DNA of 46,120 bases from a virus (lineage: Duplodnaviria; Caudoviricetes). The position numbers and the translations under genes are program-made. The notes under the pieces were generated by a model that ran no database searches, was not told the DNA's origin, and saw only the letters and a list, made by a program, of their open reading frames with translations. Location of the stretch: positions 1 through 46,120 of IMG/VR virus record IMGVR_UViG_3300025451_000021; one strand, given 5' to 3'. Below, one piece after another: positions 6,214-45,451 of this stretch (position 1 is its first letter; each line of letters begins with the position of its first letter).

Positions 6214-6572
6214 AAGTCACAAAGATTGGTGCGTTTTGGGTTGCCTCCACCGACTTCACAACAGAGGTTTTTCGCTCGAAGCAAAAAGCCCGAGCCATTG
6301 AAAAGCTGGCCAGGCACCTCGACACCCACGCCCATTGGTATGCGCAAAAAGACCGGGCCTCACGTCGTGCAGCGGAAGAGGCGCTTTCGTCGTGCGAGGT
6401 GAAATTGCGCAACGCAGAGCGAATCATTGCTGCGAGTGCGTTTAAGCCTGACAACCAGTGGATTGCAGAACGCATCTGCCATTACAACCAAGCGTGCATC
6501 GAGTTCATTTGGGCAAACAAAATGCTGCCGACTGTCGAGCAATACGAATCGATGAAGAGGGAACAACCATGA
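6210..6572 (+). CDS. Hypothetical protein
   Basis: GTGA and ATGA overlaps at its two ends. Confidence 0.6.
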   Translation: MKVTKIGAFWVASTDFTTEVFRSKQKARAIEKLARHLDTHAHWYAQKDRASRRAAEEALSSCEVKLRNAERIIAASAFKPDNQWIAERICHYNQACIEFIWANKMLPTVEQYESMKREQP

Positions 6573-7159
6573 AGCCACTCACACCGCAGCAGGAGAAGTT
6601 CGCGCAGCTGGTGGCCGAAGGCAAGAGCCAAGCGGCCGCATACCGCGAGGCGTATCCAAAAAGCCAGAAGTGGAAAGACCGCGCCGTTTGGTCGCAATCC
6701 AGCATTCTTTTTTCACATAGTGGTGTTTCCCAAAGGGTTGCCGAGCTGAGGGCGGCGGCGGTAAAGCGCACTGAGGTCACGCAGGACATGGTGATCAAGG
6801 AGCTAGCGCGGATCGCCTTTTTCGACATTCGCAAGATATTCAATCAGGACGGCGGCTTGAAGAAGGTGCACGAACTGGACGATGACACAGCTGCTGCCAT
6901 CGCCTCGATTGAACTGGTCGAGATTGGCGAAGACGGGCAGCTGGTGTTGTCCAAGAAGTTCAAGACCGAGGGCAAGATTAAGGCGCTCAATCTGCTGGGC
7001 GTGAACATGGGTATGTTTGTGCACAAGGTCGAGGATGTGACTGATCCGCTGAAGAAGGCAATGGGCCGCATGACGCCTGGTGATGCTCAGGCTGCACTGG
7101 ATGCGCTGGAGCAGGTAAGGGCGATAAGGACAAAGGCGAAAGTTTCCGACGAACGGTAG
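6569..7159 (+). CDS. terS: Terminase small subunit
   Basis: LTPQQEKFAQ..G.SQAAAYREAY; VT...VI.EL.RIAF.DIRK.F; K..AL.LLG...GMF. Confidence 0.88.
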   Translation: MKPLTPQQEKFAQLVAEGKSQAAAYREAYPKSQKWKDRAVWSQSSILFSHSGVSQRVAELRAAAVKRTEVTQDMVIKELARIAFFDIRKIFNQDGGLKKVHELDDDTAAAIASIELVEIGEDGQLVLSKKFKTEGKIKALNLLGVNMGMFVHKVEDVTDPLKKAMGRMTPGDAQAALDALEQVRAIRTKAKVSDER

Positions 7160-7258: not shown

Positions 7259-7705
7259 ATGACCAAAGACAATCAACAAGCCTTAAACGCCTTTGCCGCG
7301 GCGCTGGCCAGCTGCAACACCCAGCAGGCCATCGAAAGCGCAGTGTCACAGTACATGCGCCAGTGGGCCGCACAAGAGCGCCAAATCAAAATCTACCCGA
7401 ACGGGTTGGCAAAGGTTGAGGTGCTGGATAAAGACATGCAGCTGATTGCTGAGTACACCCGGCCAGCAAAAGGTATCTGGATTGATGTAAAGGACGAAGC
7501 TGGCTACATGGTCAGCGAAAAGGCCTACTTGGATGGCATTGTCGAGTTTGCGGCAAGCATTGAGGGCGCAGCTACCGAGGACCAAAGCGATGATGTTTTT
7601 GGTGCGGACACCCGTACCGTATCCGACCGCCGCGAATCTGTTGTGCGTCAGTTGCGCAGACTGGCCGACATGGCTGGCAAGCTGGCCGAAAAAATCGAAT
7701 CTTGA
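7259..7705 (+). CDS. Hypothetical protein
   Basis: AGGAG RBS, 148 aa. Confidence 0.75.
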   Translation: MTKDNQQALNAFAAALASCNTQQAIESAVSQYMRQWAAQERQIKIYPNGLAKVEVLDKDMQLIAEYTRPAKGIWIDVKDEAGYMVSEKAYLDGIVEFAASIEGAATEDQSDDVFGADTRTVSDRRESVVRQLRRLADMAGKLAEKIES

Positions 7706-7796
7706 CCCCACCCCGTAGCCCCTGCCCAAGCGGGGGTCTCAGAGTGGCGTTACCACCCGACCGTGCGGCACACGGTATCCATCAAATGGGGCAATC

Positions 7797-8162
7797 ATGA
7801 CTACATCAAAAACTGCGGCAATACGACAAGCCCAAAAAGAAACGGGCAAGCCTATTCGGCGCTTTGCAACAGATTGGGTTTTTTACGGTCCATATCGTAT
7901 TGGTGGACACGATACGGAGATTCGTGCAATCAGTTATCAACACGCAGTCACAAAGCGCACGGCATGGGTTGCTGAGTTGGCGCTGCATGCAATGGGCAAA
8001 TGCGACGAATCAGCCAAGTCTGCAATTGAGTCTGAGCTGAACGACTCGTATGGTGCGCGTGGCGTGAGCAACTTGGTCGATTGTGGGATGGCAGCATTTG
8101 GCAAAGGCTCCACAAAGGCAGAGATTGCAGCAGCCGCACAGAGCTACTGGGATGCACGGTGA
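7797..8162 (+). CDS. Hypothetical protein
   Basis: 121-aa ORF, GGGG RBS, coupled to next gene. Confidence 0.7.
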   Translation: MTTSKTAAIRQAQKETGKPIRRFATDWVFYGPYRIGGHDTEIRAISYQHAVTKRTAWVAELALHAMGKCDESAKSAIESELNDSYGARGVSNLVDCGMAAFGKGSTKAEIAAAAQSYWDAR

Positions 8163-8380
8163 CTGACACCATTGTCATCAAAGCCCCACCCGGCACCAAA
8201 GCCCGGTGGGTGCACAAATCCCAGGCCCAGGGTCGCAAACTGAGCGACTGGGTGAGAGAGGCCGTAGACAGGCCCACCAACACCACAGCCACTGCGCCAT
8301 GCAAGCGGTGTGGCTCGGTCGTTCTGGTGGCCGACGGCCCTGGCATGTGGCAGTGCGCCCAATGTGGGCTTGCATCATGA
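8159..8380 (+). CDS. Ribbon-helix-helix-like protein with Zn ribbon
   Basis: IVIKAPPGTKARWV..SQ..GRKLSDWVREAV plus CKRC..WQCAQC. Confidence 0.6.
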   Translation: MTDTIVIKAPPGTKARWVHKSQAQGRKLSDWVREAVDRPTNTTATAPCKRCGSVVLVADGPGMWQCAQCGLAS

Positions 8381-8565
8381 CCCCCGACGACCTGAGAGCC
8401 TGGCAGTCCCACATGGGCTACACATACCAGACTGCAAGCGCAGCGCTGGGTGTCAACCGGGCTACGTATGCACGGTGGCTCAAGGTCGGCGCATCGCGCA
8501 CCGTCGCGCTTGCCTGCGCGGCATTAGCTGCTGGGCTTAAACCATGGATTAAAGATGCTGCCTGA
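8377..8565 (+). CDS. Small XRE-like HTH protein
   Basis: MTPDDLRAWQ..MGYTYQTASAALGVNRATYARW..VALACAA. Confidence 0.8.
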   Translation: MTPDDLRAWQSHMGYTYQTASAALGVNRATYARWLKVGASRTVALACAALAAGLKPWIKDAA

Positions 8566-10942
8566 AGTCCTTGAGCGCATGGATGATGACCAGCTCGCAG
8601 CTATCGAGATGATGCTGCGGAGGGTGATCGTCGAAAACCAGCTCGATGCCTACAAGCCATACCCAAAGCAGGCCGACTTTCATGGAATGGGTGCCGAGAA
8701 GCGTGAGCGCATGCTGTCGGCTGGTAACCAGTGCATTACGCCGTGGACTTATGTCCAAACGGGTCAGACCACGCTCCAGAGCGGAGGTATGCTGCTTTCG
8801 GGAGAGCAACATGCTCTTTCGTTGGTCGATGGACGAGAAGAAATCGCTCGTACTTCTCAATGGTTTCTGCGGGACATTGCGCCAGCGTTTCGTGTTGTTC
8901 TGGACAGCGGTTTGTGGTTCGATTGCACGGCAGAACACCTGGTGTTGACTTCCGAGGGCTGGACTTCACTCGCTCAGTTAGTGTTGCGCGGAGGTGGTCT
9001 GCGTTGCTGGAATAAACATCCAAGTTCGAAGGCCAGTTATGGAAAGGGTGATCATCCTTGTGGTCAACCACCTCACATGGGGCTAAGTAGCGATCAAGAG
9101 CCACCTCACAAATGGCTCGATGCTCTCGGATTCGACCCATGTTGGACGCATACGGATGCAATGGAGCGAACACCAGCACGTATCCACTCTTATCTATACA
9201 GCGTCCGTCCACCCACTGAGTGTGATCTGCACCACTTCGCGGACCTGTTCGCGGCGTTTGAAGGCCAAGCCTCCGAACGGCTCTCTCAACACTTGCAGTG
9301 TGGCATCCAAGAATTGCGGCAGCTTCTGCTTGAGTCTTGCACTCAACCTCAATCAATCGTCGAACTTCATCGTCATTCAGTGTCCCGCCTGGACCAAAAA
9401 TCTTTGCGGGGACACCACGTCGATTTAGATACGCTTGAACCGCAAATTTCGATACCCCAAGGCGAGATGCCATTTCATGACGCTCAACGCCTTGGTCATT
9501 CCATGCGAGAAGCTCTGCTAAGTGAGCATCAAGAGGCGATTTTTTTCCCATATATACCTCATCAGTTGGTTGGTGGAAGCTCTATTTTAGCTCTGATCCC
9601 TATTGGTTACCAGCCAATATTAGACGTTCAGGTCCCGAATAGTCACAACTACAAAGCCGCAGGCGTGTATCACCACAATTGCGGGAAGACTCTCGCGGCA
9701 GCCAACGAGGTGGCCATGCACCTCACTGGGAAATACCCTGAGTGGTGGGCTGGCAAGAGGTTCACCAAGGGGAACAACTGGCTGGCTGGCTCGGAGTCTG
9801 GAGAGTTGACCCGGCGCGGTGTGCAGCGCTACCTGTTTGGCCGCGACCCCAAAAAAGACCCTGGCACCGGAGCAATCCCCAAGGGGTGCATCGTTGACTT
9901 GAACTGGAGCCGCCACGTCAACGAGTTTGTTGACACCGCTAAAATCAAGTTCACCGACGCCAATGGGCTGGAGTCAATCAGCACCATCAGCCTGAAGTCG
10001 TACGACCAGGGGCGTGGGAAGTGGCAGGCCGACACCGTGGATGGAGTTTGGTTCGATGAGGAACCGCCTGAAGACATCTACATGGAGGGGCTGACCCGTA
10101 CCAATGCTGCTTTTGGTCCAGTCATTGTCACTTGCACCTTGCTAAAAGGCATGACCACGATTGCCATGCGCTTCTGGCAGGAGCTTCACATTTACCAAGA
10201 CGCTGGGATGGTCAACATGACCATCGAGGACGTGGCGCACTACACGGCAGAGCAGAAGGCCAAGATCATTGCCAGTTATCCGCCGCATGAGCGCGAAGCC
10301 CGTACCAAGGGCATACCATCAATGGGGAGTGGTCGAGTGTTTCCTGTGCCTGAAGATCAGATCGTCATCCCGCCAATGGCGATACCAAAGCATTGGCCGC
10401 GGATCATTGGCCTCGACCTGGGTTGGGATCACCCAGCCGCGGCATCATGGATTGCATGGGACCGTGACACGGACACGATATACCTGACTGACGAGTTCAG
10501 GTTGCGTGAAACCAGTGTGGCGATGCAGGCACCACTGCTTGCAGCCAAGGGCAAGTGGATTCCCATCGCCTGGCCGCATGACGGGTTGCAGCATGACAAG
10601 GGTTCAGGTGAGCAGCTTGCGAACCAGTACCGCAACCTGGGTGCGAACATGCTGCCCGAGCGTGCGACCTTTGAAGACGGCGGGAACGGCGTTGAAGCCG
10701 GTATCAGTGAGATGCTGGAGCGCATGCAGACGGGCAGATGGCGTGTGTTCAGCACCTGCACCTCATGGATTGAAGAGTTCCGCATGTACCACCGCAAGAA
10801 TGGCCTGATCGTCAAGGAACGCGATGACGTGATCAGCGCGAGCCGTTACGCCATGATGATGCTGCGCTTTGCCATCACCGAGCCAAAGCGCTCCACACTG
10901 GGTGCATCAACCAACTTCGCAGCACGCCGCGCAGGCTACTGA
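8555..10942 (+). CDS. terL: Terminase large subunit, intein-containing (about 479 aa after splicing)
   Basis: Walker A AGNQ|CGKT split by an insertion; VWFDEEP; GLDLGWDHP nuclease motif; DDVISASRY. Confidence 0.95.
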   Translation: MLPEVLERMDDDQLAAIEMMLRRVIVENQLDAYKPYPKQADFHGMGAEKRERMLSAGNQCITPWTYVQTGQTTLQSGGMLLSGEQHALSLVDGREEIARTSQWFLRDIAPAFRVVLDSGLWFDCTAEHLVLTSEGWTSLAQLVLRGGGLRCWNKHPSSKASYGKGDHPCGQPPHMGLSSDQEPPHKWLDALGFDPCWTHTDAMERTPARIHSYLYSVRPPTECDLHHFADLFAAFEGQASERLSQHLQCGIQELRQLLLESCTQPQSIVELHRHSVSRLDQKSLRGHHVDLDTLEPQISIPQGEMPFHDAQRLGHSMREALLSEHQEAIFFPYIPHQLVGGSSILALIPIGYQPILDVQVPNSHNYKAAGVYHHNCGKTLAAANEVAMHLTGKYPEWWAGKRFTKGNNWLAGSESGELTRRGVQRYLFGRDPKKDPGTGAIPKGCIVDLNWSRHVNEFVDTAKIKFTDANGLESISTISLKSYDQGRGKWQADTVDGVWFDEEPPEDIYMEGLTRTNAAFGPVIVTCTLLKGMTTIAMRFWQELHIYQDAGMVNMTIEDVAHYTAEQKAKIIASYPPHEREARTKGIPSMGSGRVFPVPEDQIVIPPMAIPKHWPRIIGLDLGWDHPAAASWIAWDRDTDTIYLTDEFRLRETSVAMQAPLLAAKGKWIPIAWPHDGLQHDKGSGEQLANQYRNLGANMLPERATFEDGGNGVEAGISEMLERMQTGRWRVFSTCTSWIEEFRMYHRKNGLIVKERDDVISASRYAMMMLRFAITEPKRSTLGASTNFAARRAGY
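8732..9679 (+). mobile_element. Intein (316 aa) in the TerL P-loop
   Basis: Cys1 CITPWT; block B CTAEHLVLT; block F ILDVQVPNSHNY; block G VYHHN followed by +1 Cys; removal restores AGNQCGKT. Confidence 0.93.
8736..9551 (-). CDS. HTH-HNH homing endonuclease encoded antisense within the intein
   Basis: Two HTH-like repeats, then GYVLV..P.HP....G.IREHR.I.E..L.RYL...EVVDHKD....HN.PSNL; GAGGT RBS upstream. Confidence 0.85.
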   Translation of the reverse strand: MGKKSPLDAHLAELLAWNDQGVERHEMASRLGVSKFAVQAYLNRRGVPAKIFGPGGTLNDDEVRRLIEVECKTQAEAAAILGCHTASVERAVRRLGLQTPRTGPRSGADHTQWVDGRCIDKSGYVLVFAPLHPYASNMGRIREHRAICEVALDRYLAPCEVVDHKDDHPFHNWPSNLDVYSSNADHLRATLTERVKSSPRKSTPGVLPCNRTTNRCPEQHETLAQCPAETIEKYERFLLVHRPTKEHVALPKAAYLRSGAWSDPFGHKSTA

Positions 10943-10948
10943 CCCTCA

Positions 10949-10993
10949 GGCATATATGCCACGCTGGTATTTGTTGCCATCAGAGTCCAAAGT
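10949..10993 (+). promoter_or_regulatory. Putative late promoter, copy 1
   Basis: GGCATATATGCC 10949-10960; CAAAGT 10988-10993. Confidence 0.7.
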
Positions 10994-11020
10994 GAGGCAT
11001 CTTTACAGAGGTGCTTCACC

Positions 11021-11287
11021 ATGCCTGCTATCAATCCTCTCTCGTCTCAGTACCCCGACCTGACCACACCTGCCATCCGTCTGATCAGCATCACACCCGC
11101 TGACGCTGACCTGTCACATGTCTGCCGAATGCTGTTCGTCGGCCTGGGTGGAACGGTCGTTGTGCGCGACCTGTTCGGCAATGTGGCGCAGCACGAGAAC
11201 GTCGCCAGTGGCACGTACCTTGGCCCATTCCAAATTGACCGCGTGGCCGCAGCAACTAGCGCAACGGGCATCGTCGGGTACGTCTGA
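11021..11287 (+). CDS. Small virion protein resembling GTA head-spike base protein (Rcc01079-like)
   Basis: PA.....ITP.DADL...R.LFVG.GG.V.V..G.YL..QI.RV.A..ATGIV pattern; GAGGT RBS. Confidence 0.6.
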   Translation: MPAINPLSSQYPDLTTPAIRLISITPADADLSHVCRMLFVGLGGTVVVRDLFGNVAQHENVASGTYLGPFQIDRVAAATSATGIVGYV

Positions 11288-19962: not shown

Positions 19963-22900
19963 ATGAACCTCTTTCAGCTTATGACCGATGGCGTCAACCT
20001 CGACGCACTCCCAACCGAGTCAGAGACCAAGCGCGAGCCCATCGCGTTTGAGCCATCACCAGGCGGGAGGTTTTCTGTCCCGAGTGACCTGAACGCAGCT
20101 TTTGACGCTGCAGCCAGCGACTTCGGCATCGACCCCGATGTGCTGCGTGCGGTTGCCTACGCTGAAAGTCGCTTTCACCCTGACGTGGTGAGTGGCAAGG
20201 TCAAGAGCAAGACGGGCGCGACTGGCTTGATGCAGTTCATGCCCAAGACGGCGCAGGAGTACGGCATCGACCCACTGGACCCGGTGCAGTCCATCTTCGG
20301 CGCTGCTGCCTACCTGCGCAAGAGCCTCGACAAGTTCGACGGCGACTACGGCAAGGCCGTTGCCAGCTACAACACTAACCCAAACCGCAAAGACTTTGAT
20401 GCCGAAGACTGGGATGCACGCATGCCAGCCGAGACGCAGGGTTACCTGCGCACGGTGTTCACGGCCGCGGATCAACTGAAGTCTGGCAAGGCCGAGCGCC
20501 CATTGCCAGCTGGTGTTGAGCCAAGCAAAGCAGGCGCTGGGCGTGGTGTGGTGAATCCAACACGGAACGCTCCTGTCCCTGACACTGGCGACGAGACTGC
20601 TCGCCTGGCTGCACGGTACAAAGCGCCCGATGCACCGCAGCAGGGTGGTTTCATCCAGTCTGTTGGCGACTTCTTCAAGCCTGCACCAACCAGCGTGCTG
20701 GAAAGCTACAAGCCCACAGCGACAGAACAGCAAGCAGCCAATGCACAGCGCCTGCGCTATGGTGCAGGTCCCATCAAAGGTGACGTGCTGGTTGCAGCCA
20801 ACGAGGTTGCAAGTGGCAATGCAAACAGCAGTTCTCCCACAGTCAATGCTGTTGCCAAGCAGATGCAAGAGCGCGGTGACACGTTCACTGGCTATGCGCA
20901 AAGCAAGAACACACCGATCCTGAAGGAAGGTGCGCGTGACGCGAAGGCCGCTGAGTTCAGGTCTGCTGGTGAGTGGGCCGTGGACAGCGTATCCGCGTTG
21001 GCGCAAGGCTCTGTCTCCATCCCACTGCTGCCTGCAAGCATCCTTGCACCAGGCGGCGACACAGCCAAAACTCTGCGTAGTTGGCGCGATGCCTGGTCCG
21101 AGCAAGAGTCTGATGTCCTGAAGGCACAGCGTGTTGTGCTGAAGGAGCGCATTCAAAGCGAAGAAGGCTTTGCTGGCAAGTACGCAACCACTGTGCTGGA
21201 GTTGGTCACAAACCCTGCGCTTGGCCTATCTGAAGCCATCAAACAGGTGCCCAACTACCTGGCTGTCATTGGCGCATCCCGCTTTGCATCAGGTGCAGTT
21301 GGTGCAGGATTCAATGCCATCGAGAAATCAAGCCCAACACTGGCACTTGCCAATGCACTGAGCAGCGGTGCTGTTAAAGGTGGCGCACAAGCCACTGCTG
21401 CGACGGCAGGCGGTATGGCTGCGTCTGTGGTGATGACTTCTGGTGATGCTGCTGGCGATGTGTACGAAACACTGACCGACCCAAACAAGACACCCAAGAA
21501 GGTGTGGGAACAGAACGAGGACTACCAGGCGCTGATCCAGCAAGGTCTGTCGCACAAAGCGGCAGTCATGCAGATTGCAGAGGCCAAGGCACGGTTTGCT
21601 GCTGCGGTGGTGGCCCCACTTGGCCTGTTCGGGTTCATGGGCGCTGAGTCTGCTTTGGCGACAAAAGGCATTGCTGGCCTGGCCGCATCGTTTGGCCCCA
21701 AGGCAGCAGCCAAGACATTTGGCAAAGAGATCGTTGGCGAGAACATCGAAGAGGGCGGCACCAAGTGGGGAGGCAACGTGGTCACAAGCACGGTAGACCC
21801 TCGCGTCAAGTGGGACGAAGGTGTGGCCGAAGCAGCAGCGACAGCCACCGTCACATCAGCACCAATGGCTGGATTGGCTGCACGCAGTCAACTGAGCGCA
21901 CCACCAGCGCAAACCCAAGACCCACGCAACGGTTTGATTGCCGCTGGTCTGTTGGACCCACAGACCTATGACGGTGGCATCGTCGGTGCGGCTGGTACGG
22001 CAAACCCGCTGCTGGAGCAACTGAAGCGCAAGCCAGCACCCACAGTCGAATCCCAACCCACTACCCCACAAGTCCCACCCACTGTCACGCCACAGGCACC
22101 CGTCACCCCCGACGCAGCCAAGACCCAAGCAGTAGACAACATTGCAGCAGCCATCAAGGAGTTGGAAGGTGGAACAACCCAAACAGCCCCTGTTCCAGCC
22201 GGTCAGCAAGCGGTTGACGATGGCGCAGCGCCAATGGATGCAGCACAACAAGGTGCCACCCAGGGACAGGCCGAAGTTGGTGCGGTTGATGGTGCAGGAC
22301 AGTCCGAGTCGGCTGGCGCATTGACGCAGCAACCTGTTCTGCAAAACCGCGACAGGTCAAACCCAGCATCGATCACGCAGATGCAGAGCATTGCCAGCAA
22401 CCCGGACTACGGGCGGCTGGGCTTCTCCCGTGACTTTGCCAACGGTGCGCCTGTGGTGGCGGGTGCGGAGCAAAATGTTCCAGCACAACAGCGTGGAAAG
22501 CAAGACACAGCCGTTGCCGTAGATGGCACGCGCATCCCGGTGCAGTACGCCGTGGTTGACGCTGGCGAGGTGCTGACATCCAACAACGTGGACGGCACCA
22601 GTAACACGGCATATGGAGATGCCAACACACCGGCTATTCGCGCCATTGCTGGCAACGGGCGAGTGGCTGGCCTGACGGCTGCATACAGGCAGGGTACAGC
22701 CGCGCAGTACAAGCAGGAACTGATGGCCGACACCGCGCTGCATGGTGTGCCAGCCGAGGTGATTCAGGGCATGCAGAACCCTGTGTTGGTGCGTGTGATG
22801 CCGCAATCGTCTGTCACTGCCAACATTGGCGACCTGAGCAACACGCAGGGCAACCTGTCGTTGTCAGCCGTCGAGCAAGCCAAGAACGATGTGTCTCGCG

Positions 22901-25900
22901 TGAACCTGGCTGCATTGGAGTTTGATGAAGCCGGGGGGCTCACGCAGAAGGCTGTGCGCCAGTTTGTGCAGGCCATGCCCAAAGCAGAGCAAGGCGGACT
23001 GATTGACACCAACGGCCAGCCCAGCAAGCAGGCGGTGGACCGTTTACAGGCAGCGGTGTTCGCAAAAGCCTACGGTAACGACCAACTGGTTCGCCTGTTT
23101 GCACAAGCGCAAGACCCTGAAGCCAGGTTGATCCTGTCGGCCATGGCACAGCTTGCCCCAAAGATTGCCAGGCTTGAAGGGGCTGGCGCACTGGACATTC
23201 GGCCCATCATTGCCCAAGCGGCAGAGATTGCCGTGAACGCTCGCCGCGAGGGCAAGTCGATTGCTCTGGCTGCAAAGCAGATGGACATGGCAGCAGACAC
23301 AGCAGTGGGTGTGGTGCTGGATTTGTTTGCCTCGTCACCACGCAGCAACAAGTCCATCATCGAGGCGATAGCCAACGCTGCTGACTTCGCTTATGCTGAA
23401 GCCAGCAAGTCGGACATGGATATGTTTGGCGAGGTGCAACGCGCCAGCCGCGACGATGTAATCAACCAACTGAAGCCACAGAATGAACGAGCAAGCCAAG
23501 CAAATCTGGAACAGCCCACAGGGCGTGTCGCTGCTGAAAACAATGCTGTCGGGCAACAAGCCGACACAGGAACAACAGCAGACGCTGGCGCAACTGAAGC
23601 AGGCGGACCCACCCAAGAAGCCAATGGACAAGTAAACGAACCTGGCGCAGAATACTCTGTACGCCAGCAGTTCTCCCTGTTCGGCGATGAACAAAGTGAC
23701 CAACTCCAACTCTTCATCGATCGTGGACCTGACCCAGTACAGGCGGGACCGGGAGCAGTCGCTGCCCAGCGGGATGCAGTCGCTGCAATTGCGGACATAC
23801 AGTCCGTCTCCTCAATACTGGCCGCCGCCCTTACCCGTGACTACGCTGCCCGTCAAAGGATCAGCCTCGTTGGGCAAAAAGTAGCGTCTGCCGAAGACCT
23901 CGCCGTCCTGGCGCAGGTTTACCGTGACCCACGGTTTGAGACGTTCCGTGTGGTGTTCGTGGACGCCAACAACAAGGTGGTATCCCAGCTTGGCCTGACC
24001 AGTCGCTTGCCTGCGTCGGCTGCCGCATTAGTTGGTACGGACACATACGCCTATCTGAATGGCTTGTCAGCCACAGCCAAGAAGGCTGGCGCAACGGGCT
24101 ACTACCTGCTGCACAACCACCCAAGCGGACAAGCCAGGGCATCGACTTCAGATGTTCGACTGACAAACACGTTTGAGCAGCACTTGCCCGGACTTAAGTT
24201 TCAGTCGCATGTGGTCATCGACACCAACGAATACTCGACCATCGAAGGTGGTTTTGCCAACCTGATCAAAAAGGACTTTGGTGTTTTTGAGCCACTGAGC
24301 GGAAGCAACATCACATTCAACAAACCGGAAGATGTGGTTGCATACTCCAAGCGTTTGCAGGCTGAATCTGGCGCTGTCACGCTGATTGCCACAGACACAC
24401 AGTACCGAGTCAAGGGTGTTACCACGATACCTGCTGCTGAACTCAATGGACCAAAAGGCATGCTGCGCCTGAAGGTGGCGCGTGCGCTTATGCGCCTGCA
24501 GTCATCCAATGTCTTCGCTGTCGGGCGAGAGTCTGGTGCTCTCGCCAAGTTGAGTGGCATCGTGGTTGATGCCATCCACGTTGAAGATTCCGGCAGGGCA
24601 ACCAGTTTAACTGCCAGGGGTATCATCAACTCCACCAATCTTGGTGCATTCCCATCTGACCGCCGCACACGGGTAACGGTTGACAGCAGCCCTGAGTTTG
24701 CCTATCTGCGGTTTGACCCGTCAGCCATGAAGTCTGCTGGTCAGCGGGTGGCCGAGGGTGATCTGCTGACAACCTACACCCCCGCAGAAGTCACAGCACG
24801 CCAGGACGCAGCCAAGGTAGCAGAGCGCAAGGCTGCTGCTGACAAGCGTGCAGCAGATGAACAGGCGAAGCGCGAACGTGAGCGTGCAGATGTTGCACAG
24901 CGCAGTGTGGCCGCTGCCGATACGTTTGAACTCGGTGGGAATGCTGAGGACAACTTGAGTGGGCAGGAGGGGTTGAAGTTCAGTCGCACATCCGACATCA
25001 AATCGGCCCGCGTAGCACTTGCCAAGATCATGGAGAAAGGCGTAACCTCGCCTGATGATCTACGCAACCTGCTCAGAGTGCCCGGTTATTCAAAGTGGGC
25101 AAAAAGCACCATTGCTGGGGACGTGGCAGCCTCCGCCGAGCTACGCGACAGGCTCGCAAAAGAGTACCCAGGATCAGACTGGCAGGCCCCAAAACTCAAC
25201 GACCAAGGCATCATTACCTTGTATGCAGATTGGGTTGACCTCACAAGCGATTCCATTGCCAATCTTGCCAGAATAGCCGATGAGTTCGATGCGCCGATTG
25301 CCGTTCGCAATGGGGCCGTCAACAACGACTACGAAAGCAAAATCCTTCGAGCCAACGGATTCGAGGGGTACATGGGTGCTCAAGAGAGGATGGACCGGCC
25401 TTCTGCTGTGATGTTTTCTCACATCAGGCCAGCGGGTGGAATAACCGCCACAACACCGCTTTTCAGCCAAGGTGCCAAATCCCCTCGCACACCCATCAGC
25501 ACCATCACCCAAGCCATCGCCAAAGCCTACGGCAACCTCCTGCCCCGCCTCGAAGGAAAGGGTCTGGTGTCACTCACTCAGACCGAGGAAGAGGCCATTG
25601 CAGCCGCTGCACAGGCGCGTGCTGACAAGACCGGTGGTGATGTTGAGGTGATCAAGGTTCAGTTGAGGGCTAGTGTGTTGGCGAGTCAGCGTGGTACAAC
25701 TACGGGCATGCCGGAAACACAAGCGCCCGGCCCACAAGGTGACGCGCAACAGGGCGCTTCCACGGGTAATGCCGTCGCCGTTTCTCGTCAGATTGCACAA
25801 GCAATTCAGGACGATGACGATCCGTATGCAGATTACGGGTTGCGTGTTATTCCACCTGAAGCCGATGTTGTGGTGCAACCCGGTGATGAGCTTCCACCTA

Positions 25901-28900
25901 GTAATCAATGGGACGATGGTACGGATACTGGCGAGGCACTCGACGGCACGTCATCGGCACGAATAGACGGCGACACCGAAGGCGCTGCGTTGGAGGCTAT
26001 AAGGCTGATTGGAGCGCACGGCAAACCCGGCCCAAACGGCTACTACTACGGTGACCAAGTTGTCTTAATCAAGGGGAAGAAGTCTGGTGTAGGCGAAGAT
26101 GTGGGTGAAATCCTGTTGAATGACGCTGTTGTTGTTGCCACTTGGAGAAAGCCCGACAAAGGCAATAGCGAAGTCGCACCGAATGAGCAATCCACGCCCA
26201 CTTCTCAGGGCGTTGACATCCGTCGCTCCGCAGACGGCAACCTCGAAGGCTTCTTCGACCCAGCTACAGGCAAGTCATTCCTGATTGCCGACAACCTGAC
26301 AGCGGAAAGCGCACCGGGCACGCTGATGCACGAGGTGGGCATTCACATGGCGGCTGAAGGTAAGTTTGGTCCGATGTTTGATCGGGCGCTGACCGTGCTG
26401 AATGACGGCAGTCTGGAGTCCACAGGGGCACTGCGCCGTATGCAGGAGTCGGGTGAGACAAGCGGTGAAGAGGCCGCAGCGTACTTGGTGACCGTGTACG
26501 AAACCAATCGCACCAATGCGCCTGCATCTGTTAAGCAGTGGATCAAGGACTTCATTGCTGACGTTCGCGCCTGGCTGTTCAGCAAGGGTGTGCTGCTCAA
26601 GGCTGACCAGTTGACCATAGCCGACATTGCGGCTGTGGCCCGTGCGAATGCCAGTAGGATTGCGCGTGGTGGGCCGAATGGTGGGCCTGGTGGTGGGCAG
26701 GCATTCAGCCGCTCCGCCATGCCCGCCACCATCGAAGTTGACGGCAAGACCCGCTCAACGATGAACAGCAACGGCCAGCCGATTCATCCAACGCTTGATG
26801 GGGTGAGGAACTTCTGGAAGTGGTTCGGCGACTCCAAAGTGGTGGATGCCGAAGGCAAGCCGCTGGTGGTGTACCACGGCTCTTCGCGCGACATCGAGAT
26901 CTTTGCGGCTGGTGCCGACGAGGCCGGCCAATCCAATGGCAATCGCACAGGGGCATGGGGCTCATACTTCACGCCCAGCGCGGCAGAAGCGTCTATATAC
27001 GCAGAGATTGCTGGAGGCGACGGCCCACAAAATGTAGTGCCGGTCTATCTGGCGATCAGAAATCCGTATGTGATGAACCGGGCCGAATGGGGCAAGCACT
27101 CGCAAAGGACGGCGAAGGCGGCAACTACGGCAGAAGGCAGGGCCGATGCAAAAGCCGTGCGGGCCGGTATAGAGGCACTGGGCCACGACGGCATAGTTAT
27201 CCGTGATCGAGGATTTAATGACGAGTGGGTCGCCTTCAGCCCCACCCAAATCAAGTCCGCCACCGGCAACAACGGAGACTTCGATGGCACGAACCCTGAC
27301 ATCCGTCGCAGCGTGCGCGGTGGTGGGCAGCAGGCACAGCAGAACCTGGCACTGAACACGCCTTCGCCAGCGTGGATGCTGCCTGCATCGACCAAGACAG
27401 ACGCACTGGTGTACGAGATTCAGGACCAGAAGGTTGACCTGAAGCGCACACAGGAGGCTATCAAGGCAGCAGGGCGCACGATCACCGAGCCGTTTGACGC
27501 ACGCATGGCTGAGACGCTGATGCCTGGCCGTGTGGCCTACCGCACAGAGACGTTCCTGAAAACCGAAGTCGCGCCACTCATGGAGGCGATGGCGAAGAAC
27601 AACGTCACGCAGAACGAGTTGAGCGACTACCTGTTGGCGCGTCACGCACCCGAGCGCAATGCACAGATTGCCAAGGTGAACACTGAGATGCCAGATGGCG
27701 GTGCAGGCACAAACAGTGCTGGTGTGCTGATGACCACACAGGCTGCGCAGGACCACATCGCTGCACTGACCACTGGCAAGCGCATGGTGCTGCAGTTGCT
27801 GGCAAACAAGATCGACGCCATCACAGCCAGCACACGCGACTTGCTGGTGCGCGAAGGTCTGGAAAAGCAGTCAACGATGGACGCATGGACTGGTGCATAC
27901 AAGCACTATGTGCCGCTGTTCAAGGATGAGGCTGTGGAGTCGCCTGCGCACCCTATCGGCTCTGGCATGAGCGTGACAGGCAGTGCATCCAAGCGTGCGA
28001 TGGGTTCCGAAGGTGAGGTGACAAACATGGTTGCCCACATCCTCATGCAGCGCGAGGCAGCAATCACCCGTGCAGAGAAGAACCGGGTGGCGATGAGCCT
28101 GTACGGCCTGGCACTGAGCAACCCCAATCAAGAGGTGTGGACCACCATTCGCCCCAACATGCGTGCCGACAAGATCGGTGCCGAGTTGGCTGCGATGGGT
28201 GTCGATCCTGTTGAGGCCGAGCAAGGCATGCAGGGTGTGCCCACAATCCGCACCATCAACGCCGTGACTGGATTGGTGCAGGAAACGCCAAACCCGATGT
28301 ACAAGCGGCTGGAGAATGCGCTTGTGGTGAAGGTTGATGGCGAGGACCGGGTGATCCTGTTTAATGCCAAGAACGCCGATGCGATGAACATGGCGCGTGC
28401 GCTGAAGAATCAGGATGGCATCACCAAGATTGATTACTCAACTGGTGTGATTTCTCAGGCGCTCGGTTTCTTGTCTGAGGTTGCTGGCGCATCATCCAAG
28501 ACAACCAACAAGATTGTGGAAAAGACCAAATGGTTGAATGCGGCAAACGCCACACGCTACCTTGCTAGCATCAATACGCAGTACAACCCGGCCTTTGGCA
28601 TGGTCAACGTTGTGCGCGACATTGGTGGCGCACTGGTGAACCTGACAACCACTGGCATTGCTGACCAGAAAGCCAAAGTGCTTGGCGACATCCCAGCCGC
28701 CATGAAGGGCATTGCCCGTGACGTGCGAGGCGATCAAGCGCGTACACCGTGGTCTGATCTGTGGGTGCAGTTCCAAGAGGACGGTGGGCGAACGGGTTAC
28801 CGTGACCAGTTCATCGACCCGTTCAAGCGTGCAGAGGCTGTGCAGAAAGACCTTGATGCGCTGCAACGTGACAGCAAGGCATCGGCTGGCAAGGCTGCTC

Positions 28901-30177
28901 ACCTGATCCTTGATCTACTGGATGACTTCAACACCACACTGGAGAACGGTGTGCGGTTGTCTGCGTACAAAGCCGCATTGGACAAAGGCATGAGCCGCCC
29001 GGCTGCTGCGAAGATGGCGCGCGAACTGACGGTGGACTTCAACCGCAAGGGGCGCATGGGCCGTGAGATCGGTCCGCTGTATGCGTTCTTCAACGCATCG
29101 GTGCAGGGCACGGCACGCACCATCGAATCACTAAAAGGTCCAGCAGGCAAGAAGATCATCGCAGGCGGGTTGATGTTGGGCGTGATTCAGTCTCTGATGC
29201 TGGCCGCTGCCGGGTTCGATGATGACGAGCCGCCAGAGTTCGTGAAGGCCCGTGCATTCATCATCCCAATGGGCGACAAGAAGTACATCGCCATCCCGCT
29301 TCAGTTCGGCCTGAACGCACTGCCCAACACCGGGCGGGTGATCACCGACTTGCTGCTGACAGGTGGCAAGGACGCAGGCAAAAAGACCTTCAACGCCATT
29401 GGTGAAATCATGGGATCGTTCAACCCAATGGGTGGCGGCAACATCTTCACGGCACATGGCCTGCTGACCACTGTTGCGCCAACTGTGGCCGATCCAGCGA
29501 TTGACATTGGCATGAATACCAACTTTTCAGGCTCCAAAATCGGACGTGACCGCGCAGACTGGGATACGCGACCAGGGTTCAAACTGGCACGCGAAAGCAC
29601 GCAGCGCAGCCTGACTGGTCAGGCGTACATCGGCATCAGCAAGGCGATCAACGCTGCATCTGGTGGCAACGAGTTTAAGAAGGGACTCGCCAGCCCAACG
29701 CCAGAGCAGGTTCAGTATGTGTTCACCACTGCGAGTGGTGGCCTGTATCGCGAACTGGAAAAGACGTTGAATATCGCTGGCTTGAAGGCTGATGGGTTCG
29801 AAATCAAGCCACGCATGATCCCGCTGGGTGGGCGCTTCGCTGGTGAAGCTGACGATCAGGATACTCAGCGTTCACGGTACTACCGCAACTCTGAGCGCCT
29901 GGCTGCACTTGAGGCAGAACTGAAAGGCTTTGAGAAGGATGACAACGAGGCAGCAGTCAAGCGCATCGAGTCCGAGCGCAGTGATGAGGTTGATCTGCTG
30001 GGCGATTACAAGCACATCCGTCAAGCCATTACCAAGCTCAACAAGCTGGCAGCAGACAACATCAATGATGTTGAGATGCTGAAGGAGTTGGATGCCGAGC
30101 GGCTTGAGTTGATGCGCGAACTGAATGACTCGGTACGCAAGCTGGAGAAGCGCAGCGAGTTGTTCAAGCGAGACTGA
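19963..30177 (+). CDS. Giant polyvalent internal virion protein (SLT, DdrB/ParB-like, JAB/RadC, zincin-like, ART-like and LPD38-like domains)
   Basis: AESRF..GATGLMQFMP..ASYN; LQNRDR..IAGNGR; LLHNHPSG..S.SD..HVVID; HEVGIH..EEAAAY; PLVVYHGS..G.YFT..GHDGI; TVDFNRKG..LYAFFNAS.QG. Confidence 0.85.
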   Translation: MNLFQLMTDGVNLDALPTESETKREPIAFEPSPGGRFSVPSDLNAAFDAAASDFGIDPDVLRAVAYAESRFHPDVVSGKVKSKTGATGLMQFMPKTAQEYGIDPLDPVQSIFGAAAYLRKSLDKFDGDYGKAVASYNTNPNRKDFDAEDWDARMPAETQGYLRTVFTAADQLKSGKAERPLPAGVEPSKAGAGRGVVNPTRNAPVPDTGDETARLAARYKAPDAPQQGGFIQSVGDFFKPAPTSVLESYKPTATEQQAANAQRLRYGAGPIKGDVLVAANEVASGNANSSSPTVNAVAKQMQERGDTFTGYAQSKNTPILKEGARDAKAAEFRSAGEWAVDSVSALAQGSVSIPLLPASILAPGGDTAKTLRSWRDAWSEQESDVLKAQRVVLKERIQSEEGFAGKYATTVLELVTNPALGLSEAIKQVPNYLAVIGASRFASGAVGAGFNAIEKSSPTLALANALSSGAVKGGAQATAATAGGMAASVVMTSGDAAGDVYETLTDPNKTPKKVWEQNEDYQALIQQGLSHKAAVMQIAEAKARFAAAVVAPLGLFGFMGAESALATKGIAGLAASFGPKAAAKTFGKEIVGENIEEGGTKWGGNVVTSTVDPRVKWDEGVAEAAATATVTSAPMAGLAARSQLSAPPAQTQDPRNGLIAAGLLDPQTYDGGIVGAAGTANPLLEQLKRKPAPTVESQPTTPQVPPTVTPQAPVTPDAAKTQAVDNIAAAIKELEGGTTQTAPVPAGQQAVDDGAAPMDAAQQGATQGQAEVGAVDGAGQSESAGALTQQPVLQNRDRSNPASITQMQSIASNPDYGRLGFSRDFANGAPVVAGAEQNVPAQQRGKQDTAVAVDGTRIPVQYAVVDAGEVLTSNNVDGTSNTAYGDANTPAIRAIAGNGRVAGLTAAYRQGTAAQYKQELMADTALHGVPAEVIQGMQNPVLVRVMPQSSVTANIGDLSNTQGNLSLSAVEQAKNDVSRVNLAALEFDEAGGLTQKAVRQFVQAMPKAEQGGLIDTNGQPSKQAVDRLQAAVFAKAYGNDQLVRLFAQAQDPEARLILSAMAQLAPKIARLEGAGALDIRPIIAQAAEIAVNARREGKSIALAAKQMDMAADTAVGVVLDLFASSPRSNKSIIEAIANAADFAYAEASKSDMDMFGEVQRASRDDVINQLKPQNERASQANLEQPTGRVAAENNAVGQQADTGTTADAGATEAGGPTQEANGQVNEPGAEYSVRQQFSLFGDEQSDQLQLFIDRGPDPVQAGPGAVAAQRDAVAAIADIQSVSSILAAALTRDYAARQRISLVGQKVASAEDLAVLAQVYRDPRFETFRVVFVDANNKVVSQLGLTSRLPASAAALVGTDTYAYLNGLSATAKKAGATGYYLLHNHPSGQARASTSDVRLTNTFEQHLPGLKFQSHVVIDTNEYSTIEGGFANLIKKDFGVFEPLSGSNITFNKPEDVVAYSKRLQAESGAVTLIATDTQYRVKGVTTIPAAELNGPKGMLRLKVARALMRLQSSNVFAVGRESGALAKLSGIVVDAIHVEDSGRATSLTARGIINSTNLGAFPSDRRTRVTVDSSPEFAYLRFDPSAMKSAGQRVAEGDLLTTYTPAEVTARQDAAKVAERKAAADKRAADEQAKRERERADVAQRSVAAADTFELGGNAEDNLSGQEGLKFSRTSDIKSARVALAKIMEKGVTSPDDLRNLLRVPGYSKWAKSTIAGDVAASAELRDRLAKEYPGSDWQAPKLNDQGIITLYADWVDLTSDSIANLARIADEFDAPIAVRNGAVNNDYESKILRANGFEGYMGAQERMDRPSAVMFSHIRPAGGITATTPLFSQGAKSPRTPISTITQAIAKAYGNLLPRLEGKGLVSLTQTEEEAIAAAAQARADKTGGDVEVIKVQLRASVLASQRGTTTGMPETQAPGPQGDAQQGASTGNAVAVSRQIAQAIQDDDDPYADYGLRVIPPEADVVVQPGDELPPSNQWDDGTDTGEALDGTSSARIDGDTEGAALEAIRLIGAHGKPGPNGYYYGDQVVLIKGKKSGVGEDVGEILLNDAVVVATWRKPDKGNSEVAPNEQSTPTSQGVDIRRSADGNLEGFFDPATGKSFLIADNLTAESAPGTLMHEVGIHMAAEGKFGPMFDRALTVLNDGSLESTGALRRMQESGETSGEEAAAYLVTVYETNRTNAPASVKQWIKDFIADVRAWLFSKGVLLKADQLTIADIAAVARANASRIARGGPNGGPGGGQAFSRSAMPATIEVDGKTRSTMNSNGQPIHPTLDGVRNFWKWFGDSKVVDAEGKPLVVYHGSSRDIEIFAAGADEAGQSNGNRTGAWGSYFTPSAAEASIYAEIAGGDGPQNVVPVYLAIRNPYVMNRAEWGKHSQRTAKAATTAEGRADAKAVRAGIEALGHDGIVIRDRGFNDEWVAFSPTQIKSATGNNGDFDGTNPDIRRSVRGGGQQAQQNLALNTPSPAWMLPASTKTDALVYEIQDQKVDLKRTQEAIKAAGRTITEPFDARMAETLMPGRVAYRTETFLKTEVAPLMEAMAKNNVTQNELSDYLLARHAPERNAQIAKVNTEMPDGGAGTNSAGVLMTTQAAQDHIAALTTGKRMVLQLLANKIDAITASTRDLLVREGLEKQSTMDAWTGAYKHYVPLFKDEAVESPAHPIGSGMSVTGSASKRAMGSEGEVTNMVAHILMQREAAITRAEKNRVAMSLYGLALSNPNQEVWTTIRPNMRADKIGAELAAMGVDPVEAEQGMQGVPTIRTINAVTGLVQETPNPMYKRLENALVVKVDGEDRVILFNAKNADAMNMARALKNQDGITKIDYSTGVISQALGFLSEVAGASSKTTNKIVEKTKWLNAANATRYLASINTQYNPAFGMVNVVRDIGGALVNLTTTGIADQKAKVLGDIPAAMKGIARDVRGDQARTPWSDLWVQFQEDGGRTGYRDQFIDPFKRAEAVQKDLDALQRDSKASAGKAAHLILDLLDDFNTTLENGVRLSAYKAALDKGMSRPAAAKMARELTVDFNRKGRMGREIGPLYAFFNASVQGTARTIESLKGPAGKKIIAGGLMLGVIQSLMLAAAGFDDDEPPEFVKARAFIIPMGDKKYIAIPLQFGLNALPNTGRVITDLLLTGGKDAGKKTFNAIGEIMGSFNPMGGGNIFTAHGLLTTVAPTVADPAIDIGMNTNFSGSKIGRDRADWDTRPGFKLARESTQRSLTGQAYIGISKAINAASGGNEFKKGLASPTPEQVQYVFTTASGGLYRELEKTLNIAGLKADGFEIKPRMIPLGGRFAGEADDQDTQRSRYYRNSERLAALEAELKGFEKDDNEAAVKRIESERSDEVDLLGDYKHIRQAITKLNKLAADNINDVEMLKELDAERLELMRELNDSVRKLEKRSELFKRD

Positions 30178-39480: not shown

Positions 39481-40497
39481 TTAATCGCTTCTGTCACTCT
39501 TAGCGACTGTTTTGCCAATGCATATTTGTCGATCATCACCATCAACTTCGTTAGCAGTCAAAAGCATGTCGCCCTGCACCGCCGTGTCGCCAGCGCCGAC
39601 TTTTGCTATCCGCTCGCACGCCAGATCAAAAAACCGCCTGTCTCGCTCAATCCCAACAAACGGCAGTCCTAGTTCAGCGCAAACCGCGCCAGTTGTCCCG
39701 CTTCCAAGGAACGGATCGCACACGACGCCAAAACCCCAAAGCAGAACCATGCGCCGCGCCAACTCGTCAGGAAACTTTGCCGGGTGGTCGTCGTTGTTCC
39801 GCACGGAAGGAATCGCCCAAACTGACCGGCTACCCCATTGCCCCCACTCTGACACTTGTAGGCGTGCGCGGTCAAAAGTCGGCACGCTGCCGGCCTTGCG
39901 GAAGCACAGCACATGCTCGTGTTCGTCAACCGCACGGTCGCTCAGTGAGTGGTATTGACAGGTTTGCCAGCAGGGGTCTTTCACCCAAACCCGCGAATCG
40001 TGCAGGTAGTACCCGGCCACGCTGGCCAAGTCCGAAGCCGCCGCACCAGAAAGAAAAACTCTTGTCTGTGCCTCCGCTTTGCTGCCCCTTGCGTTGTTCC
40101 CGAAAAGCCTCCGGTCTATTGTTTGCTCGCTGCACGCCAGTGCCTCGGCAATCTCCTTCTTGTTGCGCCCCCTGCCGGCTATCGCCGCGTCAATTACGTC
40201 CTGCGCGGTGACTGTGTTCTTCCTGCCAACAACGTCAGCCCGCACGGGGGCTATCAGCTTGTCCTCATGGCAGCGCACATCAGCCAAGTTCAAAACCACA
40301 ATTTCCGCGTCAGTCGCAGCAAAGAACCCCGACATCAGCGCCAACCATTCAAGCCTGCCGCCGCGTTCGTATTCCTTGCCAACCCCATAAGGCGGGCTGG
40401 TCACTATCGAGCCTGCCGCGACCGATGGCAAAATCTCGCGGCAGTCTCCGTGCCACAGTTCGCAATTCCCGATTGTCACTTTCTCAGCCATCATCAT
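39481..40497 (-). CDS. Beta-class amino DNA methyltransferase (probably N4-C) with HTH-like insertion
   Basis: GDC, TSPPY, SVW.I, HPAKFP, DPFLGSGTT, GIE. Confidence 0.9.
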   Translation of the reverse strand: MMMAEKVTIGNCELWHGDCREILPSVAAGSIVTSPPYGVGKEYERGGRLEWLALMSGFFAATDAEIVVLNLADVRCHEDKLIAPVRADVVGRKNTVTAQDVIDAAIAGRGRNKKEIAEALACSEQTIDRRLFGNNARGSKAEAQTRVFLSGAAASDLASVAGYYLHDSRVWVKDPCWQTCQYHSLSDRAVDEHEHVLCFRKAGSVPTFDRARLQVSEWGQWGSRSVWAIPSVRNNDDHPAKFPDELARRMVLLWGFGVVCDPFLGSGTTGAVCAELGLPFVGIERDRRFFDLACERIAKVGAGDTAVQGDMLLTANEVDGDDRQICIGKTVAKSDRSD

Positions 40498-45409: not shown

Positions 45410-45451
45410 TTTCAATCCTTTTGTGCCGCCAGCGCTTTACTGGCGTGCGTC

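Follow-up and report, generated by a model that had tools for sequence, protein, structure and literature searches.

An intein with an antisense partner gene interrupts a phage terminase

We analyzed a 46,120-base virus record (IMGVR_UViG_3300025451_000021; the window, meaning this whole stretch) with an estimated completeness of 89%. It encodes a tailed-phage gene set that includes a terminase small subunit, portal, major head protein, tail fibre, endolysin, helicase, and primase. The gene for the large terminase subunit (TerL) lies on the plus strand at 8555-10942. Its ATP-binding loop is interrupted by an intein, and the strand opposite this intein carries a separate gene for an HNH endonuclease. 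The TerL precursor comprises 795 amino acids, 479 with the intein spliced out, and is the sole TerL among 34 scanned window proteins. Pfam placed Terminase_6N at residues 376-600 and Terminase_6C at residues 618-769 of the precursor, and the nearest cultured TerL is that of Xylella phage Xfas53 (60.8% over the C-extein).

The intein (316 residues; 948 nucleotides (nt), in frame) occupies 8732-9679 on the plus strand and splits the Walker A motif into SAGNQ and CGKT. Its splicing residues are Cys1 (encoded at 8732), T66-A-E-H69, D298, Y307, H314, H315, and N316, with the HHN end at 9679. In 26 aligned inteins, C1, H69, D298, Y307, H314, H315, and N316 were invariant; the Thr of the TxxH motif varied. 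The block F Asp and block G His-Asn of a class 1 intein are both present, and the +1 residue (9680-9682) is Cys. A profile of the 26 inteins matched solved DnaB inteins in the PDB (expectation value (E) 2.4e-8), and the AlphaFold model of the intein matched DnaE, RecA, and DnaB inteins (20 chains at E≤0.001). In this model, residues 1-90 and 271-316 are predicted to fold as a Hint domain. The N-terminal splicing region (blocks A and B, residues 1 to ~92; 8732-9007, plus strand) was modelled with a predicted local distance difference test score (pLDDT) of 78-94, while the C-terminal splicing region (blocks F and G, HHN end) spans 9551-9679 on the same strand. Splicing of this intein would probably restore the Walker A motif.

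The two splicing regions are joined by a stop-free sense-frame linker (9008-9550, plus strand) that is not conserved as a protein and is predicted to be mostly disordered, with pLDDT below 50 over residues 94-144, 146-162, 182-187, and 206-267. No endonuclease family matched this sense-frame middle in Pfam, NCBIfam, or PHROGs scans of the window. A canonical intein with an in-frame endonuclease was rejected, as the middle has no family match, shows no selection, and is modelled at low confidence. A fractured gene with a split intein was excluded for the window, where the precursor is one continuous 795-residue open reading frame (ORF). Three further ORFs within the intein region (8549-8938, minus strand; 8646-8948 and 9120-9428, plus strand) had no meaningful Pfam match and were set aside.

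The antisense ORF encodes an HNH endonuclease

The minus strand carries an intact 271-residue ORF at 8736-9551. It covers intein residues 2-273, blocks A and B included, and its TAA stop lies 4 nt inside the 5' edge of the intein. From the N-terminus, the nuclease consists of two tandem helix-turn-helix (HTH) units (residues 6-44 and 60-95; 9267-9536), of which some relatives, with shorter forms of 226-242 residues, have only one, an HNH core (residues 106-195; 8967-9236), and a C-terminal extension (residues 196-271; 8739-8966). The core includes E143, H144, R145, D163, H164, N172, N176, N183, and H186, with H164, N172, and N176 invariant in 34 aligned nucleases. The extension is read on the reverse of intein blocks A and B and is absent from short-type relatives.

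Three PHROGs HNH families matched the ORF (E 1e-16, 4e-16, and 1e-13). In its AlphaFold model (mean pLDDT 85.7), two HTH units are followed by the HNH core and a small tail of helices, the tail with pLDDT 80-97 over residues 211-260. HNH proteins were the top structure matches of this model in BFVD (E to 4e-10). A sequence search of the PDB returned HTH matches only, and the HTH units also dominated the whole-model structure search, which barely probed the fold of the tail. An ESM Atlas search with the tail (residues 196-271) gave no usable match. No LAGLIDADG or VSR-like family appeared among the Pfam, NCBIfam, and PHROGs matches, and the NCBIfam scan of window proteins returned neither HNH_3 nor an intein model. 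Because Pfam and NCBIfam gave no match, the identity of nuclease and intein rests on PHROGs, family profiles, relatives, and models.

A preliminary description of this DNA, made from the sequence and its ORFs, had placed an intein with an intact splicing domain at 8732-9679, an antisense ORF with two HTH units and an HNH core at 8736-9551, and between the splicing regions an open sense frame that does not read like a folded domain. The coordinates hold, the splicing residues are present, and the profile and Hint model match. PHROGs, AlphaFold, and BFVD agree on the antisense ORF, and the sense middle has 0 stops, pLDDT mostly below 50, and no family match. The suggested comparison of Hint and HNH_3 profiles was split in outcome, since Pfam missed both in the window, whereas PHROGs HNH families and the family profile against PDB inteins matched.

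Both ORFs are conserved across a family of TerL inteins

Homologues of the nuclease numbered 115, of which 106 matched at E≤1e-42. They are mostly 267-274 residues long, most are full length at 38-64% identity, and 22 of the 115 carry a precomputed PF13392 annotation. Single-sequence searches of viral contigs recovered the window's own element only. A nuclease profile search of three collections yielded 149 loci (68 + 78 + 3): 114 with a complete intein, 14 with a partial intein, and 21 with a partial HNH match and no intein match. The complete inteins reduced to 74 distinct ones, all within Walker A-like motifs of genes resembling TerL. Host fragments (n=45) matched a terminase family in 24 cases, an AAA ATPase and a helicase in one case each, and nothing in 19. 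Pfam Intein_splicing matched relative L193 above cut-off, and Pfam HNH_3 matched 21 of 22 sister-type ORFs at E≤0.001, 18 of them above cut-off.

The antisense ORF is intact and in the same phase in 72 of the 74 distinct inteins, with antisense codon positions 1, 2, and 3 opposite sense positions 1, 3, and 2. It starts 123-135 nt from the intein 3' end (exactly 129 nt in 62/74), and its stop lies 4 or 19 nt within the 5' end in 62/74; seven ORFs slightly overrun the edge. The catalytic pattern [DH]H-x7-N-x3-N was found in 68 of the 72 intact ORFs, with H186 in 68/68, at a median nucleotide identity among the inteins of 55%. The two broken ORFs are those of L023, which has a stop at codon 22, and L066. 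L023 has an intact sister, L082, with identical splicing ends.

As the 74 inteins had been fetched with nuclease patterns, two nuclease-independent searches were added. An intein-protein pattern found 37 loci, 36 of them found previously (L066 among them) and one cut by a contig end. A DNA pattern of the intein C-terminal junction found 119 loci, of which 80 had flanks, giving 66 distinct loci. In 53 of these, the nuclease profile scored at least 80 bits, antisense and in the same phase; 37 of the 53 were new. The remainder comprised five weak matches and eight loci with none (4 mini-inteins, 2 contig-end cuts, and 2 apparent chance matches). No other frame of the 66 loci reached 20 bits with the nuclease profile. 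Because the junction pattern was built from the family consensus, and 12 of the 53 are close copies of one 295-residue element, this survey describes one intein lineage and not all TerL inteins.

Several relatives differ in placement. Most inteins precede G-K-T, as in the window, while a few (L048, L056-L058, L061, L062, L068, and L338) sit three residues on, after G-K, which reveals shifts of the target site within the P-loop. L046, L054, L065, and L122 carry the intein in a different TerL type. A related element in L214 (1-2010) lies in an AAA ATPase, not a terminase. Its sense frame is broken across the antisense HNH gene: the N-part ends at 663, and the C-part continues in another frame with a Met shortly before the intein C-terminal blocks, an arrangement like that of a split intein in a fractured gene.

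Selection differs by region and by frame

Selection was estimated from 29 disjoint pairs (61-91% identical) drawn from the 72 intact sequences less 7 near-duplicates. Difference rates were compared between sites grouped by what a change does in each of the two frames, with changes to stops excluded and bootstrap intervals taken over pairs. The resulting ratios (antisense pNN/pSN, sense pNN/pNS; <1 indicates constraint) are uncorrected p-distances from an alignment made in the antisense frame.

In the HNH core, the antisense ratio was 0.32 (0.28-0.35) and the sense ratio 0.95 (0.86-1.05). The HTH units gave 0.57 (0.51-0.62) and 1.12 (1.02-1.22), respectively. The sense linker held 0 stops versus 4.4 expected per gene (65 genes). 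Because it is constrained in the antisense frame only and lacks sense stops, the element's middle is a gene for the nuclease, and its reverse merely avoids stops. The C-terminal splicing region (residues 278-316), which has no antisense ORF, gave an antisense ratio of 1.10 (0.94-1.28) and a sense ratio of 0.32 (0.27-0.37), and the C-extein control (27 pairs) gave 1.21 and 0.47. By these ratios, the C-terminal splicing part is constrained in the intein frame only. The overlap was constrained both ways, with antisense 0.60 (0.51-0.70) and sense 0.68 (0.58-0.78) over intein residues 2-45, and antisense 0.64 (0.55-0.73) and sense 0.52 (0.46-0.59) over residues 46-90. The nine closest pairs showed the same pattern, sharper. 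Over intein residues 8-95, antisense stops numbered 1 versus 171.9 expected from synonymous shuffles of 67 inteins, compared with 130 versus 131.9 in the control region. The N-terminal splicing domain is thus genuinely dual-coding, under purifying selection in both frames.

The last 75 residues of the nuclease could instead be functionless read-through, in a frame that stays open only through conservation of the intein or because premature stops do slight harm. Short-type relatives do without the tail, ending at intein residues 55-85, which makes it dispensable for some members; the tail has no known match; and AlphaFold's confidence in it may stem from covariation that the intein imposes. Against this, the antisense ratios of the overlap, with stops excluded, lie below those of the two regions where the antisense phase is non-coding (1.10 and 1.21). 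The frame is also open over residues 8-55 in 66 of 67 clade members versus 4 of 28 other inteins. We therefore regard read-through as improbable.

The whole ORF might also be a dead relic, or a shadow of sense conservation, that is not expressed. Its expression is deduced from sequence, and the window copy has no Pfam HNH_3 match. Yet the middle is constrained in the antisense frame alone, and the start codon, Shine-Dalgarno (SD)-like motif, and catalytic residues are kept at the low nucleotide identity of the family, making a relic extremely unlikely. The preliminary description had stated that the ORF ends 4 nt inside the intein and double-codes the N-terminal splicing region; the constraint on both frames agrees with this. 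It had also named per-frame selection and antisense stops among homologues as checks. The nuclease frame proved constrained in the middle and both frames in the N-terminal overlap, with 72/74 ORFs intact and only the single stop noted above over residues 8-95.

Putative signals for antisense expression

The strand opposite the C-terminal splicing region forms the 5' leader of the nuclease gene. An SD-like GAGGT (9556-9560, minus strand) lies 4 nt before the ATG, and 55 of 74 relatives have an SD-like 4-mer ahead of the start, versus 0-11 at six control offsets. A candidate -10 box, TAAAAT, is located at 9584-9589 (minus strand), ~32 nt before the ATG. At this fixed place, the extended -10 motif TGnTAnnnT occurs in 19 of 67 sequences versus 0.8-2.8 expected (synonymous shuffles; maximum 10 in 1000), and at least 5/6 agreement with TATAAT occurs in 31 of 67 versus 9.9-12.9 expected. 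A second site, 33 nt further up, gave 31 versus 13.9-18.9 expected; as the sequences are related, all these motif counts overstate independence. The C-terminal splicing region may contain a candidate promoter, and the nuclease is probably expressed independently of TerL.

Empty alleles and near-identical inteins point to homing

Among the best 80 of 245 terL relatives, 76 were empty, 2 were cut at the site, 1 was the window's own element, and 1 was L338, whose related intein with an antisense HNH gene sits three residues further on and was left out of the +1 count. One of the empty loci is 80% identical. At +1, the 76 empty alleles mostly carry Leu (64), the others having Ser (7), Val (3), Ile (1), or Gly (1), whereas all 74 inteins are followed by Ser, Cys, or Thr. 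Because empty alleles mostly carry Leu, the +1 Cys likely arrives by co-conversion. For the same reason, the empty target given in the preliminary description, GGTAACCAG^TGCGGGAAG, is not the natural one.

A contig from run X16 covers 8579-9850 with 45 differences. Of the 39 listed, just 2 lie within 8705-9705, neither altering the nuclease protein, while at least 30 fall in 9706-9850; a further X16 piece differs at 44 of 323 positions in 9978-10300. The near-unchanged stretch 8705-9705 (plus strand), which comprises the intein, ~27 nt upstream, and 26 nt downstream and is common to this diverged terL allele, is a likely co-conversion tract. A contig from run X9 has no intein at the site: where the window has 9680-9700, it carries 21 different letters that begin CTT-GGC-AAG, after which 2 of 229 nt differ downstream. 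In four pairs of relatives (L009/L010, L035/L093, L036/L100, and L051/L052), the inteins are 99.6-100% identical and the downstream flanks 80-86%. The window C-extein shares at most 53% identity with other intein carriers and 89% with an empty allele over 150 residues. We infer recent homing with ~26 nt of co-conversion on each side, supplying the +1 nucleophile, and the element is likely still mobile.

HNH proteins are encoded beside terminases in many cos phages, where they have a packaging cofactor role. The nuclease could accordingly be a domesticated terminase cofactor with the intein merely its carrier, as it sits within terL, evolves under purifying selection, and is seldom disrupted (2/74). 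This is hard to square with a terL gene that lacks the element in 76 of the best 80 loci, or with near-identical copies in diverged exteins. Broken, deleted, and mini-intein forms also exist (L023, L066, L197, L217, and L267), and relative L214 resides in a non-terminase AAA ATPase. We consider domestication very unlikely.

Shorter forms persist in sister lineages

In most sister inteins, the antisense ORF ends near block B, at intein residues 55-85. A few extend to residues 4-39 with a tail unlike that of the window, and a second long-tail clade (L190, L194, L208, L231, L256, L387, and L388), whose antisense tail differs in sequence and reaches intein residues 4-35, includes Pectobacterium phage Taid (PQ008975) and Pseudoalteromonas phage PHS3 (KX912252). 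A tree of the HNH core (52 rows), with 11 non-intein HNH relatives as its root, placed the intein-borne nucleases on one side (98/92), the window clade together (100/99), and short forms near the base; because of this placement, the nuclease tail is likely derived. The splicing-domain tree likewise sets the window clade apart. The two long-tail clades are separate in the splicing-domain tree and joined in the HNH-core tree (88/87), with few columns available in either tree.

Taid carries a 288-residue TerL intein with an antisense HNH gene, within a gene immediately ahead of the portal whose annotation reads hypothetical. In PHS3, the intein has 300 residues, the HNH gene is annotated, and TerL is annotated from within the insert and so truncated. 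Seven further related phages gave the same partial match. A term search of the main text of the Pectobacterium phage paper (PMC11445585) found no occurrence of intein, HNH, or endonuclease. Reduced forms also occur: L217 (2010-2426, minus strand) holds a 139-residue mini-intein with an antisense remnant of the nuclease C-terminus, and L197 and L267 have internal deletions.

A model for the element

We consider it highly probable that the TerL ATP-binding loop harbors a mobile class 1 intein with a separate antisense HNH gene, that the intein splices, and that cutting of empty terL by the nuclease, itself likely the product of a dedicated antisense transcript, would let repair copy the element. 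In this model, the intein would splice out of TerL and leave Walker A restored. A promoter within the C-terminal splicing region would drive transcription of the nuclease gene, and translation would begin at the conserved SD and ATG; the enzyme would then nick or cut near AGNQ^LGK in co-infecting phages. Repair would co-convert ~26 nt per side, changing the usual +1 Leu to the Cys required for splicing. Historically, a free-standing HNH gene may have entered a mini-intein in reverse orientation, and the sense frame would have stayed open because TerL is essential. In the window clade, the ORF would later have extended through the N-terminal splicing domain, with the extension now selected as protein.

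With less assurance, we favor a stronger reading. A single 270-bp stretch may encode the catalytic N-terminal half of a splicing enzyme and, on the opposite strand, a new folded and functional nuclease domain. The element would also have its own antisense promoter in the other splicing half and would change the Walker A residue of its target from Leu to Cys, Ser, or Thr, thereby making its own splice junction. Such an arrangement would amount to an enzyme core being overprinted de novo while shorter ancestral forms survive, in a lineage that is widespread, still mobile, and hidden from annotation.

Several observations weigh against the model. At E≤0.1, Pfam matched no window protein with Intein_splicing and did not match the window nuclease with HNH_3 (PF13392). 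A Foldseek search of the PDB with the nuclease model gave zero matches at E≤0.001, and the match to I-HmuI over nuclease residues 106-195 is modest (Z 5.0, root-mean-square deviation 3.7, 80 residues aligned, rank 37). A generic promoter and terminator scan of 8500-11100 found nothing, and at the candidate -10 place the window copy reads AGcTAAAAT, with neither the TG nor a good -35. The 74-intein set is biased towards intact ORFs, the selection ratios have the form described above, and six of the 45 X16 contig differences lie outside the listed ones. The preliminary description had called the locus a dual-coding selfish element with splicing and homing expressed independently. Region-specific selection, the conserved start and SD-like motif, and the homing signatures support the first part; for independent expression, the argument is still drawn from sequence.

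Genomic surroundings

The terminase small subunit gene (6458-7159) and TerL are separated by several short ORFs (7259-8565). This region is variable between related contigs, with skips and loose ends near 8312-8579. Elsewhere, the window encodes a 3404-residue protein (19963-30177) that matches PHROGs families without assigned function as well as a lytic tail protein, a DNA methyltransferase (39481-40497), and an RNA ligase-like protein (44468-45415). In other carriers, TerL genes exceed 900 residues at several loci (e.g. L010, L023, L071, L082, L087, L088, and L109) or stop and then resume in a downstream ORF (e.g. L003, L015, and L017). These long or interrupted genes suggest further insertions in the same gene.

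Comparison with known systems

I-HmuI is an intron-encoded nicking enzyme. The window nuclease may resemble I-HmuI-type proteins (PDB 1u3e; Pfam HNH_3, PF13392) in the HNH core fold, at only the modest Z noted above, and differs in its N-terminal HTH units and in a tail overprinted on an intein.

The arrangement had initially been thought undescribed, but antisense intein nucleases are in print. A preprint by Gosselin, Arsenault, and Gogarten (bioRxiv 10.1101/2025.01.02.630785) describes non-canonical inteins of four kinds: in-frame HNH, antisense LAGLIDADG, antisense VSR-like, plus out-of-frame endonuclease VII. Many of these inteins are in TerL, and antisense forms are called rare. For Synechocystis dnaX and a SpoVR-like gene of Chloroflexus, it credits earlier antisense cases to Gorbalenya 1998 and Gogarten 2002. 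As far as that text goes, its inteins share with ours an intact splicing domain, an open unstructured sense middle, a separate antisense nuclease ORF, signs of continued homing, a TerL host, and near-identical inteins in diverged exteins. Unlike its antisense types, the nuclease here is HNH, not LAGLIDADG or VSR-like. The secondary ORF is typically outside the splicing domain there, whereas here it covers blocks A and B, and the antisense form described as rare is the usual state of a large lineage here. The in-frame HNH inteins cited in the same preprint likewise combine an intein with an HNH nuclease; ours has no sense-frame HNH match, and its separate polypeptide would need its own transcript.

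Two other systems are related in part. The ShiLan domain (PMC11855218) is an out-of-frame HNH hidden within a phage methylase. Like the window nuclease, it is an HNH gene concealed under a stop-free host frame with a homing-like distribution, but it lies on the same strand in the third frame, has no splicing domain, and is flanked by zinc fingers instead of HTH units. The mycobacteriophage TerL P-loop inteins TerL1-a and TerL1-b (PMC5050341) also insert in the terminase Walker A motif, and TerL1-b splices and cuts the empty allele. In these inteins the endonuclease domain belongs to the intein protein itself, unlike in the window. The main site here precedes G-K-T, with few relatives after G-K (such as L048, L056, and L338).

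In the literature covered, mostly titles and the beginnings of abstracts, with subscription journals largely missing and the preprint supplements (Table 1 possibly relevant) outside its scope, we found neither an antisense HNH intein nor an ORF running through the splicing domain. Relative to that literature, the HNH nuclease type and its overlap with the splicing domain are apparently new; the layout of an intein with an antisense nuclease is already known.

Implications

The lineage is common in environmental phages, is probably still moving, and occurs in cultured phages. Because Taid and PHS3 carry the sister form, expression of an antisense homing gene is directly testable. Such TerL genes are mis-annotated, as hypothetical in Taid and as truncated in PHS3. 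With co-conversion of the +1 residue, the intein would not need to find an existing Cys, Ser, or Thr, which would widen its target range. The clade is a naturally occurring example of a catalytic domain being overprinted, with shorter forms in a graded series, and may be useful for understanding the origins of overlapping genes.

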